DNA from: a virus
Taxonomy: Duplodnaviria > Heunggongvirae > Uroviricota > Caudoviricetes
IMG/VR virus record: IMGVR_UViG_2859827302_000011
Length of the DNA stretch: 10,910 nucleotides
Strand: one strand, 5' to 3'
This document shows, piece after piece, positions 1 through 10,910 of the stretch (positions within the stretch are counted from its first letter, which is position 1; each line of letters starts with the position of its first letter). Under the pieces are notes generated by a model. That model did no database searches. It saw nothing but the letters and a program-made list of their open reading frames with translations, and was not told the origin of the DNA. Both the position numbers and the translations under genes were made by a program.

Positions 1-504
1 TTACTGATAGTGTTTTATGTTCAGATAATGCCCGATGACCTTGTCATGCAGCTCCACCGATTTTGAGAACGACAGTGACTTCCGTCCCAGCCTTGCCAGA
101 TGTTGTCTCAGATTCAGATTATGTCGCTCAATGCGCTGAGTGTAACGCTTGCTGATAACGTGCAGCTTTCCCTTCAGGCGTGATTCATACAGCGGCCAGC
201 CATCCGTCATCCATACCACGACCTCAAAGGCCGACAGCAGGCTCAGAAGACGCTCCAGTGTGGCCAGAGTGCGTTCACCGAAGACGTGCGCCACAACCGT
301 CCTCCGTATCCTGTCATACGCGTAAAACAGCCAGCGCTGACGTGATTTAGCACCGACGTAGCCCCACTGTTCGTCCATTTCAGCGCAGACAATCACATCA
401 CTGCCCGGTTGTATGCGCGAGGTTACCGACTGCGGCCTGAGTTTTTTAAGTGACGTAAAACCGTGTTGAGGCCAACGCCCATAATGCGTGCACTGGCACG
501 ACAT
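1..504 (-). CDS. insB: IS1 InsB reading frame (transposase moiety, expressed as InsAB' fusion by -1 frameshift)
   Basis: ORF track 167-aa translation ends ...[15 protein letters not shown], characteristic of IS1 InsB; the stop codon is the reverse complement of bases 1-3. Confidence 0.85.
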
Positions 505-2623: not shown

Positions 2624-2948
2624 CCACTTCAGGTCGGTCATGAGCACTAAATTAACCGGCTATGTATGGGATGGTTGCGCTGCATCAGGCATGAAGTTAT
2701 CCAGCGTGGCAATTATGGCCCGCCTGGCTGATTTCAGTAATGACGAAGGTGTGTGCTGGCCATCAATTGAAACCATTGCCCGTCAGATTGGCGCGGGGAT
2801 GAGTACCGTCAGAACGGCTATCGCACGGCTGGAAGCAGAAGGCTGGTTAACGCGTAAGGCGCGTCGCCAGGGTAACCGCAATGCGTCGAATGTTTATCAG
2901 CTTAACGTTGCGAAGCTTCAGGCAGCGGCATTTTCTCAACTGTCAGAT

Positions 2949-3008
2949 TCTGACCCGTCAAAATCTGACGCATCAAAATCTGACCCGTCAAAATTTGATG
3001 CGTCGAAA
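2949..3008 (+). repeat. Four tandem 15-bp direct repeats (tctgacccgtcaaaa / tctgacgcatcaaaa / tctgacccgtcaaaa / tttgatgcgtcgaaa) inside the replication gene; putative origin iterons
   Basis: Direct reading of the sequence; the repeats encode the pentapeptide reiteration SDPSK-SDASK-SDPSK-FDASK. Further CCGTCAG motifs occur at 5482, 5503 and 5527 beyond the IS, followed by an A-rich stretch. The analogy is to the lambda origin, which lies as iterons inside gene O. Confidence 0.5.
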
Positions 3009-3014
3009 TCTGGC

Positions 3015-3022
3015 AAAAAAGC
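3015..3022. repeat. 8-bp target-site duplication (aaaaaagc), left copy, of the IS66-family insertion
   Basis: Identical octamer at 5464-5471 immediately outside the other IS end; 8 bp is the IS66-family duplication length. Confidence 0.85.
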
Positions 3023-3093
3023 GTAAGCGTACAGCCTGAACCGTCTGGTCAGAATCTGACGAATTAGACAAAGTGGTGTCCACCAAATAAGTA

Positions 3094-3495
3094 GTGGGAA
3101 CCAAAGTGTCAGATATGCAGAAAAATGTGAATCCCGGCAGGCGAAAAGGCTGCCCTAATTATCCTCCCGAATTTAAACAGCAGCTCGTTGCTGCCTCCTG
3201 TGAACCCGGGATATCCATCTCAAAACTTGCTCTTGAAAATGGCATTAACGCCAATCTGTTGTTCAAATGGCGACAACAATGGCGCGAGGGAAAGCTGCTA
3301 TTACCTTCTTCAGAGAGCCCCCAGCTACTTCCTGTGACTCTCGATGCAGCTGCCGAACAGCCAGAATCGCTCGCAGAGGATCCGGAAACCCTCAGTATCA
3401 GCTGTGAGGTAACGTTCCGGCACGGGACGCTCCGCTTCAATGGCAATGTCAGCGAAAAGCTCCTGACTCTGCTGATACAGGAACTGAAGCGATGA
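3094..3495 (+). CDS. tnpA: IS66-family TnpA (orf1 accessory protein)
   Basis: First ORF of the IS66-type triplet, with a helix-turn-helix-like segment (PEFKQQLVAASCEPGISISKLALENGINANLLFKWRQQW); its stop overlaps the tnpB start (ATGA at 3492-3495). Start uncertain: GTG at 3094 or ATG at 3115. Confidence 0.75.
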   Translation: MGTKVSDMQKNVNPGRRKGCPNYPPEFKQQLVAASCEPGISISKLALENGINANLLFKWRQQWREGKLLLPSSESPQLLPVTLDAAAEQPESLAEDPETLSISCEVTFRHGTLRFNGNVSEKLLTLLIQELKR

Positions 3496-3839
3496 TCCCG
3501 TTACCTTCCGGGACCAAAATTTGGCTGGTTGCCGGTATCACCGATATGAGAAATGGCTTCAACGGCCTGGCGGCAAAGGTGCAGACGACGCTGAAAGACG
3601 CTCCGATGTCAGGTCACGTTTTTATCTTCCGTGGGCGTAATGGCAGTCAGGTAAAGCTCCTCTGGTCTACCGGCGATGGACTGTGTCTGCTGACCAAACG
3701 GCTGGAGCGCGGCCGCTTCGCCTGGCCGTCAGCCCGGGATGGCAAAGTGTTCCTCACACCGGCACAGCTGGCGATGCTCCTTGAAGGTATCGACTGGCGG
3801 CAGCCTAAAAGACTGCTTACGTCCCTGACTATGTTGTAA
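3492..3839 (+). CDS. tnpB: IS66-family TnpB (orf2)
   Basis: MIPLPSGTKIWLVAGITDMRNGFNGLAAKVQTTLKDAPMSGHVFIFRGRNGSQVKLLWSTGDGLCLLTKRLERGRFAWP is the highly conserved IS66 Orf2 signature. Confidence 0.9.
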   Translation: MIPLPSGTKIWLVAGITDMRNGFNGLAAKVQTTLKDAPMSGHVFIFRGRNGSQVKLLWSTGDGLCLLTKRLERGRFAWPSARDGKVFLTPAQLAMLLEGIDWRQPKRLLTSLTML

Positions 3840-3887
3840 GCCTCTTTATCCTGGTCGACGCTGAATGAGCCTGGTAATATACCCGGT

Positions 3888-5426
3888 ATGAGCAGCTCAC
3901 TTCCTGACGATATCAATGCACTGAAACGTCTCCTTGCCGAACAGGAGGCGCTGAACCGTGCCCTGCTGGAAAAGCTGAACGAGCGTGAACGCGAAATAGA
4001 CCATCTGCAGGCACAGCTGGATAAGCTGCGCCGGATGAACTTCGGCAGCCGCTCCGAAAAAGTCTCCCGTCGTATCGCACAGATGGAAGCTGACCTGAAG
4101 GCACTTCAGAAAGAAAGTGATACCCTTACCGGTCGGGTTGACGACCCGGCCGTGCAGCGCCCGCTGCGTCAAACCCGCACCCGCAAACCGTTCCCCGAAT
4201 CACTCCCCCGCGATGAAAAACGGCTGCTGCCGGCAGCGTCATGCTGCCCGGAATGTGGAGGCTCACTGAGCTATCCGGGTGAGGATGCCGCCGAACAGCT
4301 GGAGTTGATGCGCAGCGTCTTCCGGGTTATCCGGACTGTACGTGAAAAGCATGCCTGTACTCAGTGCGATGCCATCGTGCAGGCCCCCGCGCCTTCACGG
4401 CCCATCGAGCGGGGTATCGCAGGACCGGGGCTGCTGGCCCGCGTGCTGATCTCAAAGTATGCAGAGCACACCCCGCTGTACCGCCAGTCTGAAATGTACG
4501 GCCGCCAGGGCGTGGAGCTGAGTCGTTCACTGCTGTCGGGCTGGGTGGATGCATGCTGCCGGCTACTGTCACCGCTGGAAGAAGCGCTTCAGGATTATGT
4601 GCTGACTGACGGTAAGCTCCATGCTGATGACACGCCTGTCCCGGTGCTGTTGCCAGGCAATAAGAAAACGAAGACCGGGCGGTTATGGACCTACGTTCGT
4701 GACGACCGTAACGCCGGGTCAACGCTGGCGCCGGCGGTGTGGTTCGCTTACAGCCCGGACAGAAAAGGCATCCATCCGCAGACCCATCTTGCGGGGTTCA
4801 GTGGTGTACTGCAGGCGGATGCATACGCCGGGTTCAACGAGCTGTACCGGGATGGCCGGATAACGGAAGCCGCCTGTTGGGCTCACGCCCGCCGTAAAAT
4901 CCACGATGTGCACGTTCGCACCCCGTCAGCCCTGACGGAGGAAGCGCTGAAACGGATCGGCGAACTGTACGCCATCGAGGCAGAGATAAGGGGAATGACG
5001 GCGGAGCAGCGCCTTGCCGAACGTCAGTTGAAAACGAAACCGCTGCTGAAATCCCTGGAAAGCTGGCTGCGTGAAAAGATGAAAACCCTGTCGCGACACT
5101 CAGAACTGGCGAAAGCGTTCGCATACGCCCTGAACCAGTGGCCGGCGCTGACGTACTATGCAGATGATGGCTGGGCTGAGGCGGACAATAACATCGCTGA
5201 AAATGCGTTGCGGATGGTCAGTCTGGGCCGCAAAAACTACCTGTTCTTCGGTTCGGATCATGGAGGAGAGCGGGGAGCGCTGCTGTACAGCCTGATCGGG
5301 ACGTGCAAACTGAACGGAGTGGAGCCAGAAAGCTACCTCCGCTATGTCCTTGACGTCATAGCCGACTGGCCGATAAACCGGGTCGGCGAACTGCTCCCCT
5401 GGCGCGTAGCACTGCCGACTGAATAA
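3888..5426 (+). CDS. tnpC: IS66-family transposase TnpC (orf3)
   Basis: 512 aa with an N-terminal coiled-coil/leucine-zipper region, a CPECGG...CTQCD zinc-finger motif and a DDE-type catalytic region; length and order match IS66 transposases. Confidence 0.9.
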
Positions 5427-5463
5427 CACATCCCCGTCAATACGGTTCTTGCTGCACGCTTAC

Positions 5464-5471
5464 AAAAAAGC
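5464..5471. repeat. 8-bp target-site duplication (aaaaaagc), right copy, of the IS66-family insertion
   Basis: Identical to 3015-3022. Confidence 0.85.
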
Positions 5472-6030
5472 GGGTTTTCACCCGTCAGAATCTGGCGGGG
5501 ATCCGTCAGTAAAATCAAAACATGATCCGTCAGATAAAAAACCTTCTCGTCCGGACGCTTCGCAACCGGACACGCAGACGGCTGAACAGGATTTTTTAAC
5601 TCGCCATCCTGATGCGGTTGTATTCAGCCCTAAAAAGCGCCAGTGGGGGACGCAGGATGATTTGACCTGCGCACAGTGGCTCTGGAAAAAAATCATCGCC
5701 CTGTACGAGCAGGCTGCCGAATGTGACGGCGAGGTGGTTCGTCCCAAAGAACCGAACTGGACAGCCTGGGCAAACGAAATTCGCCTGATGTGTGTACAGG
5801 ATGGCCGTACTCACAAACAAATCTGCGAGATGTACAGCCGCGTCAGCCGCGATCCGTTCTGGTGCCGTAACGTGCTCAGCCCGTCGAAGTTGCGGGAAAA
5901 ATGGGATGAGCTTTCCCTGCGCTTATCGCCGTCCGTCAGCACGCACACAGAAAAACGTGAAGACCCGTACTTCAAAGCCAGTTACGACAACGTGGACTAC
6001 AGCCAGATCCCGGCAGGATTCAGGGGGTGA
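5464..6030 (+). pseudogene. Phage replication initiator (O-like), 3' fragment downstream of the IS66-family insertion
   Basis: Removing 3023-5463 plus one copy of the 8-bp duplication joins ...SGKKA in frame to GFHPSESGGDPSVKSK..., giving one uninterrupted 313-codon ORF (2640..3022 + 5472..6030). The track ORF start at 5449 is a TTG inside the IS66 end and is not a real start. Confidence 0.7.
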
Positions 6031-6032
6031 GC

Positions 6033-6521
6033 ATGAGTCTTTTGAATGACGTTCAGAAATTCATTGAAGCCCATCCGGGGTGTACTTCCGGAGACATTGC
6101 GGATGCTTTTGCAGGTTACTCACGGCAGCGCGTTCTGCAGTCTGCAAGCAAGTTACGTCAGAGTGGGCGTGTGGCTCACCGTTGTGAAGGAGATACACGC
6201 AGACATTTCCCGCGCCTGACTGAGAGAGCGCAGGAACCGGGACCACAATCAGTTCGAGAAACCAGACCTGTGCGCAATTTCTATGTCGGCACTAACGATC
6301 CCCGGGTGATTTTGTGCCTGACCCGCCAGGCTGAAGAACTGGAGTCCAGGGGCTTATACCGTCGTGCTGCAACGGTGTGGATGGCGGCATTCCGTGAAAG
6401 CCACTCCCAGCCAGAACGAAACAATTTTCTGGCGCGTCGTGAGCGGTGCTTACGGAAAAGCAGCAAGCGCGCTGTATCGGGTGATGAGTGGTATCTGTCA
6501 GGGAATTACGTGGGGGCTTAA
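6033..6521 (+). CDS. Hypothetical protein (162 aa), unassigned; sits in the slot after the replication initiator
   Basis: ATG at 6033 preceded by AGGGGG (6022-6027); its stop overlaps the next start (TAATG, 6519-6523). The N-terminal roughly 50 aa (MSLLNDVQKFIEAHPGCTSGDIADAFAGYSRQRVLQSASKLRQSGRV) look winged-helix-like. I do not recognise the family. Confidence 0.5.
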   Translation: MSLLNDVQKFIEAHPGCTSGDIADAFAGYSRQRVLQSASKLRQSGRVAHRCEGDTRRHFPRLTERAQEPGPQSVRETRPVRNFYVGTNDPRVILCLTRQAEELESRGLYRRAATVWMAAFRESHSQPERNNFLARRERCLRKSSKRAVSGDEWYLSGNYVGA

Positions 6522-7174
6522 TGAGTAATAAATATTGCCAGGCGCTGGTGGAGTTGCGAAACAAACCAGCCCATGAACTGAAGGAAGTGGGCGATCAGTG
6601 GCGCACACCGGACAACATTTTCTGGGGAATTAACACCCTGTTTGGCCCGTTTGTTCTGGATCTGTTTACTGACGGTGATAACGCCAAATGTGCCGCGTAT
6701 TACACGGCGGAAGACAACGCGCTGGCGCATGACTGGTCAGAACGTCTTGCGGAGCTTAAAGGTGCTGCCTTTGGAAATCCTCCATACAGCCGCGCCAGTC
6801 AGCATGAGGGGCAATACATCACCGGCATGCGTTACATCATGAAACATGCCAGTGCCATGCGTGATAAGGGCGGGCGCTATGTTTTCCTGATCAAAGCTGC
6901 CACCAGCGAAGTGTGGTGGCCGGAAGATGCGGATCATATTGCTTTTATTCGCGGGCGTATTGGTTTTGAACTGCCTGCCTGGTTTATCCCGAAAGACGAG
7001 AAGCAGGTGCCAACCGGTGCTTTCTTCGCTGGTGCTATTGCCGTTTTCGACAAGACCTGGAAGGGACCGGCAATCAGCTACATCGGGCGCGATGAACTTG
7101 AGGCATGTGGTGAGGCCTTTCTGGCGCAAGTTCGCCAGCAGGCAGAAAAACTTGTCAGGGAGATGGCGGCATGA
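6521..7174 (+). CDS. Phage DNA N6-adenine methyltransferase (Dam-like)
   Basis: Contains the amino-methyltransferase catalytic motif NPPY (AFGNPPYS); size and position match the methyltransferase commonly found in lambdoid nin regions; start overlaps the upstream stop and its own stop overlaps the next start (ATGA at 7171-7174). Confidence 0.7.
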   Translation: MSNKYCQALVELRNKPAHELKEVGDQWRTPDNIFWGINTLFGPFVLDLFTDGDNAKCAAYYTAEDNALAHDWSERLAELKGAAFGNPPYSRASQHEGQYITGMRYIMKHASAMRDKGGRYVFLIKAATSEVWWPEDADHIAFIRGRIGFELPAWFIPKDEKQVPTGAFFAGAIAVFDKTWKGPAISYIGRDELEACGEAFLAQVRQQAEKLVREMAA

Positions 7175-10601: not shown

Positions 10602-10910
10602 GGTAATGACTCCAACTTACTGATAGTGTTTTATGTTCAGATAATGCCCGATGACCTTGTCATGCAGCTCCACCGATTTTGAGAACGACAGTGACTTCCG
10701 TCCCAGCCTTGCCAGATGTTGTCTCAGATTCAGATTATGTCGCTCAATGCGCTGAGTGTAACGCTTGCTGATAACGTGCAGCTTTCCCTTCAGGCGTGAT
10801 TCATACAGCGGCCAGCCATCCGTCATCCATACCACGACCTCAAAGGCCGACAGCAGGCTCAGAAGACGCTCCAGTGTGGCCAGAGTGCGTTCACCGAAGA
10901 CGTGCGCCAC
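10602..10910 (-). mobile_element. IS1: IS1 insertion sequence, copy B (only the first 309 bp are in the window), same orientation as copy A
   Basis: Starts with the IS1 terminal repeat GGTAATGACTCCAAC (10602-10616); 10617-10910 is identical to 1-294. Confidence 0.95.
10617..10910 (-). CDS. insB: IS1 InsB reading frame, 3' portion (cut by window edge)
   Basis: The 97-aa translation is identical to the C-terminal part of the InsB frame of copy A. Confidence 0.85.

Follow-up and report, generated by a model that had tools for sequence, protein, structure and literature searches.

The viral record IMGVR_UViG_2859827302_000011 of IMG/VR (Caudoviricetes), analyzed here over its whole length of 10,910 nucleotides and referred to as the window, carries a gene resembling the lambda replication initiator O, with an array of 15-bp repeats inside its coding sequence and an insertion sequence (IS) of the IS66 family among them. 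The locus raises the question of what these repeats are for: whether they are maintained for the peptide that they encode or for the DNA itself and, if for the DNA, which protein reads them. We consider it very likely that they serve as iterons in a replication origin of the lambda type, located inside its own initiator gene. The anatomy of the gene, its homology to lambda O and the covariation of the repeats with the DNA-binding domain of the initiator were observed directly. The principle is a textbook one; the initiator family described here is less studied, and the copy in the window is a dead one.

The initiator gene and its repeats

Excising the IS together with one copy of its target duplication restores an in-frame open reading frame (ORF) of 942 nt, or 313 codons, that is 99.4% identical to the corresponding gene of phage Kati and 98.6-98.7% identical to those of the Shigella phages SfIV and SfII. 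The PHROG 391 family, ‘replication initiation O-like’, covers residues 1-313 of the restored protein (E 9.4e-136). Lambda O itself matches the protein with 31% identity over 216 aa (BLASTP, E 8e-26), and residues 166-277 are 39% identical to the lambda O C-terminal domain (tblastn). At the other end, Pfam HTH_36 (PF13730) was found at residues 23-70 (E 4e-11, 42.9 bits versus a cut-off of 25). The parts of the interrupted gene are as follows.

2640-3022, plus strand: O-like initiator gene, 5' part, comprising codons 1-127 and a further 2 nt; the ORF begins MSTKLTGYVWDGC
2640-2939, plus strand: winged-helix DNA-binding domain, codons 1-100 (Pfam HTH_36 and AlphaFold2)
3015-3022: left copy of the target duplication, AAAAAAGC, holding the A6 tract of the spacer between repeat units I5 and I6
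3023-5463, plus strand: ISEc22-like IS66-family insertion sequence, 2441 bp, with tnpA, tnpB and a DDE transposase
5464-5471: right copy of the target duplication, AAAAAAGC
5472-6030, plus strand: 3' part of the O-like gene, with the rest of the linker to about 5586
About 5584-5919, plus strand: lambda-O-like C-terminal domain
6001-6027, plus strand: DnaT-like C-terminal tail, the last 9 codons

An AlphaFold2 model built on a 17-sequence alignment divides the protein into three parts. Residues 1-100 (predicted local distance difference test, pLDDT, 75-87) have the helix and strand order of a winged helix and form a single such domain, residues 103-166 are disordered (pLDDT <50) and are predicted to be an interdomain linker, and a helical C-terminal domain spans about 185-280 (pLDDT 80-90). 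The translation of the linker is rich in Ser, Asp and Lys. Using Foldseek, the nearest structures to the N-terminal domain are winged-helix regulators of the MarR/PadR/ArsR type, several of which have been solved on operator DNA; these matches are weak (best E 2.8e-3, none <=0.001), and a PDB sequence search also returned only weak MarR-type matches.

At 2949-3012, Tandem Repeats Finder gives a period of 15 bp with 4.3 copies (81% matches, score 86), and the same region scores 100 when given a 30-bp period. The repeat unit is a 13-bp palindrome, GTCAGA-W-TCTGAC (6+1+6), with the consensus GTCAGAWTCTGAC, present once per 15 bp. The array opens with a GTCAGA half-site and closes with TCTGNC, and a further unit beyond the IS is solitary; the W-centred 13-mer is therefore the unit. 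Six units with internal dyad symmetry and 0-3 mismatches to the consensus were found in all.

2942-3014, strand not applicable: array of candidate iterons I1-I5 (from repeat finding, motif enrichment, recoding and codon bias)
2942-2954: candidate iteron I1, GTCAGATTCTGAC, 0 mismatches to the consensus
2957-2969: candidate iteron I2, GTCAAAATCTGAC, 1 mismatch
2972-2984: candidate iteron I3, ATCAAAATCTGAC, 2 mismatches
2987-2999: candidate iteron I4, GTCAAAATTTGAT, 3 mismatches
3002-3014: candidate iteron I5, GTCGAAATCTGGC, 3 mismatches
5484-5496: distal candidate iteron I6, GTCAGAATCTGGC, 1 mismatch, beyond the IS
5500-5535: two GATCCGTCAG boxes, with GATC at 5500 and 5524 (spacing 24 bp), within the AT-rich portion of the DNA encoding the linker
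5508-5547: AT-rich segment, candidate unwinding element, 70% AT, the AT maximum of the gene over 40 bp

At up to two mismatches the consensus matches the window five times versus 0.20 expected, a count that none of 200 shuffles reached. In the restored gene the starts of I5 and I6 are 33 bp apart, leaving a spacer of 20 bp. The repeats occupy nt 303-408 of the restored ORF and the predicted linker nt 307-498 (residues 103-166), so that the array, the distal site and the AT-rich segment all lie in DNA that encodes the predicted disordered linker. Of the 12 genes scanned, 11 have their AT maximum directly behind the last repeat, among them those of mEp460 and HannyBb; EKP1 is the exception.

A preliminary description of the window, made from the sequence alone, had noted tandem 15-bp repeats at 2949-3008, in agreement with the region given by Tandem Repeats Finder, and had counted four repeats before the IS and three after it. 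The repetition stands but the count does not, as there are five palindromes plus one. The three CCGTCAG copies named in that description are present at 5482, 5503 and 5527, followed by the A-rich stretch GATAAAAAACC at 5533, which is part of the most AT-rich 40-bp segment of the gene; the copies are, however, unequal, with the first belonging to the full palindrome I6 and the other two to the GATCCGTCAG (GATCC) boxes. Its further proposal of a lambda-like layout, with the repeats and an AT-rich region placed in the interdomain linker of an O-like gene, is supported by the PHROG assignment, the disordered linker of the model and the position of the AT maximum after the repeats, and the IS66 element that it placed within the origin sits between I5 and I6.

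To the right of the AT-rich region of lambda (locus L092, nt about 1165-1190 of the locus), the sequence TCGTCAGAGAATTCTGGCGAATCC resembles window positions 5481-5504, CCGTCAGAATCTGGCGGGGATCC. This likeness could be due to chance or be a trace of common linker ancestry.

Covariation and DNA-level constraint

The genes of phiNP, Flotzy, YeP1 and EKP1 combine the N-terminal domain of the window with unrelated C-terminal halves and other neighbours (in EKP1 the next gene encodes a toprim protein), and all four keep the repeat motif. The reciprocal arrangement is found in mEp460 and HannyBb, which have the C-terminal half of the window (96.6% and 74% DNA identity, respectively) joined to another N-terminal domain; no GTCAGAWTCTGAC-type motif was found in these two genes, which carry other repeats, TCCATYGGKTCAAAA. 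Within the HTH_36 family, 191 IMG/VR loci are split into subtypes that differ in their putative recognition-helix and wing residues, each with its own 15-bp unit. The first scan of viral contigs had returned only copies that are 100% identical in the N-terminal domain and thus uninformative on divergence, and the divergent relatives came from further scans using subtype B and C queries. The subtypes are listed with their residues and the core of their 15-bp unit.

Subtype A: STVRTAIA / RRQGNRNASNVYQLN; core GTCARAWTCTGAC
Subtype B: STVK(A/S)AI / RKVGGRNxSNIYRLN; core GTCAAnnnTTGAC
Subtype C: STVITLI / RRxGQRSTSNLYTLN; core GTYCAGAWTCTGAAC
Fourth subtype: GISTIRN; core GTACAGATTCTGAC

The 15-bp period is constant across all subtypes, and where the palindromes of two subtypes differ, the two arms change symmetrically. 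Two type C relatives (L125 and L126) also have the solitary distal site, in the sequence of their own subtype. The array is kept in very different surroundings: a type B relative on a Logan contig (L124, SRR13853430) has YdaS/YdaT upstream and an IstB/DnaC-like gene downstream, while the type C neighbourhoods include DUF1627 in L125 and NinG and Q in L126. Judged from these sequence comparisons, the repeat is inherited with the N-terminal DNA-binding domain and not with the C-terminal domain.

This covariation bears on the possibility that the palindromes are bound by some other protein, such as a host factor or the PerC-like or LexA-like phage regulator, and serve regulation rather than initiation. 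Palindromic sites would suit many dimeric regulators, and part of the region does appear to be read by something other than the initiator, given that the GATCC boxes are invariant across N-terminal domains. We nevertheless regard this explanation as improbable for the palindromes, whose sequence follows the N-terminal subtype while the neighbouring genes differ, those downstream variously encoding PerC, Dam or another methylase, PAPS reductase, a toprim protein or a DnaC-like protein.

The GATCC boxes themselves are kept across the N-terminal subtypes in 87 of 87 (box 1) and 82 of 83 (box 2) distinct segments, with a spacing of 18-24 bp, and GAC is the commoner Asp codon nearby (56% in the 42 codons upstream of the boxes). 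This constancy across subtypes marks the boxes as a conserved feature of the DNA that something else reads, and makes it improbable that the initiator binds the last two CCGTCAG repeats. We infer that the boxes may be targets of Dam methylation or SeqA binding; two Dam sites 18-24 bp apart in the candidate unwinding segment would suit control by either. A phage Dam methylase gene is located at 6521-7174, two genes downstream of the initiator, and many phages of the family carry their own Dam next to the initiator gene.

To assess the constraint on the repeat DNA, 2000 synonymous versions of each gene were generated, with codons sampled according to the usage in these genes. At up to two mismatches, the motif occurs four times in the window gene compared with a recoded mean of 0.14, and none of the 2000 recodings reached the observed count. 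The outcome was likewise 0/2000, at two or three mismatches, in eight homologs sharing the N-terminal domain (KpF5, Klebsiella phage 1 LV-2017, ST101-KPC2phi6.3, vB_EcoS-733R5, phiNP, Flotzy, YeP1 and EKP1), and types B and C also passed this test, each with its own motif. Codon choice follows the same pattern. Serine is encoded by TCA or TCT at 99 of 118 positions in the array versus 81 of 252 elsewhere, and lysine by AAA at 46 of 47 versus 110 of 154. Between the window and its homologs, the N-terminal domain has the same codon at 26-37 of 71-78 conserved residues (22 of 55 in EKP1), so only about 40% of conserved N-terminal residues keep their codon, while the core codons of the array stay fixed. 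The codon between cores is free in both base and residue (Pro, Ala, Thr or Gly), with TCA-AAA-TCT-GAC remaining constant, and the core is identical in phages of Escherichia, Klebsiella, Citrobacter and Yersinia. Comparison with homologs, as proposed in the preliminary description, thus finds the repeats conserved at the DNA level beyond the needs of the protein. The pattern that the description gave as refuting its proposal, with the protein sequence kept and the nucleotide repeats lost, is reversed here: core codons are fixed and the residue between cores varies. Since dyad symmetry has no meaning for a peptide, the palindromic unit is a property of the DNA, and these patterns point to selection acting on the repeat DNA rather than on the peptide.

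The number of units is variable. Among 79 near-identical copies, the gene has a length of 308, 313, 318 or 323 codons, corresponding to -1 to +2 15-bp units, and more distant relatives have up to ~8 units; the length of the linker therefore shifts in steps of five residues with the gain or loss of an iteron. Such variation among near-identical genes is what replication slippage would give, and together with the translation of the segment as a predicted disordered linker it would fit a low-complexity Ser-Lys-Ser-Asp protein linker grown by slippage, with DNA that has no role in cis. The prospects of this explanation are slimmer again, given that the core synonymous sites are fixed although the residue of the intervening codon varies, that recoding never yields the motif count of a unit that is a DNA palindrome, and that phages of four bacterial genera share the same core despite ~40% codon retention in the N-terminal domain.

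Least probable of all is that the repeats act mainly through nucleic-acid structure, as a cruciform, as translation-modulating mRNA hairpins or as a single-strand assembly site: the 176-nt restored linker does fold as single-stranded DNA at -28.4 kcal/mol (z = -4.4 versus shuffles) and the symmetric subtype changes in both arms also preserve complementarity, but with a single central base per unit the full hairpin cannot form, Rfam gave no family match in the window, and it is the half-site sequence and not merely the pairing that is conserved and that follows the DNA-binding subtype. A secondary structural contribution has been proposed for the lambda iterons (bioRxiv 10.1101/2025.04.02.646746), and by analogy structure may contribute secondarily to repeat function here.

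A candidate origin and its disruption

For the origin that we favor, a mechanism can be proposed in which binding, unwinding and helicase recruitment are taken from the lambda model. An intact gene, such as those of SfIV, SfII and Kati, has five to eight palindromes at 15-bp phase plus one further downstream. The winged-helix N-terminal domain, which belongs to a class whose dimers bind palindromic DNA, would bind the 13-bp GTCAGAWTCTGAC palindromes. By analogy with the lambda O-some, the nucleoprotein complex would then strain and open the adjacent 40-bp, 70% AT segment, and the C-terminal domain, as a homolog of that of lambda O, would bring in the host helicase. The same DNA is also translated into the disordered linker that joins both domains.

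Several observations weigh against an origin. Five of the six testable features of a lambda-type origin were found, the missing one being a downstream gene for a loader of the P type: in the window, SfIV and KpF5, the initiator is not followed by any P-, DnaC- or DnaB-like gene, which leaves the helicase-loading step unexplained. Sites of 13 bp per 15 bp leave almost no room between dimers, an arrangement with no precedent in lambda, and the AT-rich segment is modest, with 70% AT over 40 bp versus 80% in lambda. The SfIV genome paper names a replication module and no origin, and searches of the literature for a described origin in this initiator family yielded only work on lambda and Stx phages and that genome paper. 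In addition, recombination can homogenise tandem repeats and so inflate similarity within a gene, although homogenisation does not account for conservation between diverged lineages.

The genes after the initiator in the window encode PerC-like, Dam, LexA-like and RusA proteins, and loader genes are likewise absent in SfIV, KpF5 and others, so that most phages of the family have none behind the initiator. One tentative view, which we think has a minor chance of being correct, is that the family is a loader-less lambdoid replicon that differs from lambda after initiator binding. On this view the palindromes, packed at 15-bp phase, would give a nearly unbroken filament of initiator, and the two Dam sites of the candidate unwinding segment would fit control by methylation or SeqA. 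The C-terminus of the initiator, SQIPAGFRG, is identical at 8 of 9 positions to the extreme C-terminus of Escherichia coli DnaT, SQIPPGFRG, and the last 20 residues of a type B relative are identical to DnaT at 14 of 20 (pairwise E 1e-7). This tail, shared with host DnaT (SEPDxxIPPGFRG), is almost invariant across the family alignment and might plug the initiator into the DnaT-dependent DnaB-DnaC loading of the host without a P protein; in two reviews covering DnaT, no function is assigned to the tail.

The origin in the window is an inactivated fossil, split by the ISEc22-like element, with an IS3-family element abutting the start codon of the initiator gene, and the prophage of the window cannot replicate. 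The splitting element has the hallmarks of the IS66 family, with terminal inverted repeats of 22 nt (3023-3044 and 5442-5463), an 8-bp target duplication and tnpA and tnpB in addition to the DDE transposase (Pfam HTH_Tnp_1, TnpB_IS66 and DDE_Tnp_IS66), and is 99.7% identical end to end with copies annotated as ISEc22 family in other contexts. It was inserted in the A6 tract of the I5-I6 spacer, an AAAAAA (Lys-Lys) tract kept in every homolog examined, and parts the five iterons from I6, the GATCC boxes and the AT-rich segment. The ORF starting at 2640 runs into the IS and meets a stop at 3026, so the frame ends after codon 129 and the protein is truncated behind its N-terminal domain. A search of 5426 complete E. 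coli genomes turned up this junction in none of them; the insertion is therefore private to the source lineage.

The IS contains an iteron-like palindrome of its own.

3048-3060: GTCAGAATCTGAC, a perfect palindrome beginning 26 nt from the left end of the IS

This sequence is canonical for the element, being present in 30 of 30 other copies long enough to read, and belongs to the IS and not to the phage origin. Targeting of iteron-like DNA by the IS was considered and rejected, as the 70 bp upstream of the insertion lack such a motif at all 30 other sites that could be read. By our own estimate, an element of 2.4 kb would show this likeness to the iterons by coincidence about once in 10,000 cases.

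The surrounding region is a rearranged lambdoid prophage remnant. The IS3-family element at 1383-2631, presumably IS911, is bounded by the inverted repeats TGAAGTGGCACACTGAATTTGGCCACC and TGAAGTGGTCAACAAAAACTGGCCACC and lacks a matching target duplication. It bridges a phage lysozyme gene that is truncated (1126-1382) and the beginning of the initiator gene (ATG at 2640), joining the two directly. Lysis genes are normally located downstream of Q, and the position of the lysozyme gene beside the initiator therefore indicates an IS-mediated rearrangement. Window positions 1-294 are identical to 10617-10910 and consist of IS1 sequence in the same orientation; the window therefore either covers a single unit of 10,616 bp with an IS1 copy at each end or wraps around a repeat or circular assembly.

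These results show where the origin probably lies in an abundant family of prophage initiators, among whose phages are the serotype-converting Shigella phages SfII and SfIV. The family comprises 2374 database proteins at E <= 1e-5, mostly labelled only as ‘helix-turn-helix domain-containing protein’. Three or four pairings of an initiator subtype with its iteron sequence occur naturally and constitute a ready specificity series for a winged-helix initiator. Knowledge of the origin location is also useful since defence systems can sense such origins: during infection, the Lamassu system shows enrichment at the iterons of lambda (bioRxiv 10.1101/2025.04.02.646746).

Comparison with known systems

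The closest parallel is ori-lambda, which also lies in the central part of the initiator gene and codes for its interdomain linker. In both systems several dyad-symmetric iterons are followed by an AT-rich segment at an equivalent place, and the C-terminal domains are homologous. Iteron number varies between relatives and alters protein length, as it does between lambda and the Stx phages 933W and P27; lambda has 4 iterons and Stx phages 6, the O protein of the latter being 13 residues longer (PMC7466680). The differences from lambda are nonetheless considerable. The N-terminal DNA-binding domain of the window initiator is an HTH_36 winged helix unrelated in sequence to that of lambda O, and its sites are 13-bp palindromes every 15 bp plus a distal site, whereas the four 17-bp cores of lambda start 20-24 bp apart. 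The AT-rich segment is weaker (70% versus 80%) and has two conserved GATC sites where that of lambda has none. No P gene stands behind the initiator, and the initiator ends in a DnaT-like tail, unlike in lambda.

The Rac prophage oriJ was considered as a known relative and rejected, as the protein at the equivalent position in E. coli K-12, YdaU, is a DUF1376 protein of another family. Iteron plasmids of the RepA, pi and TrfA class share with the window a winged-helix initiator and repeated sites next to an AT-rich region. In these plasmids, however, the iterons lie outside the rep gene as direct repeats of about 17-22 bp, and Rep binds them as a monomer with two winged helices. The window locus falls outside the RepA/pi class, with sites that are palindromic and intragenic and one winged-helix domain in the model.

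Modular O-type initiators are known among other lambdoid phages, including gene 15 of phi80 and gene 18 of P22. The O-type initiators of mEp460 and HannyBb differ from that of the window in iteron sequence and in the fold family of the N-terminal domain, but share its organization, in which the N-terminal domain and the origin form one exchangeable unit, joined to the C-terminal module just after the AT-rich segment.

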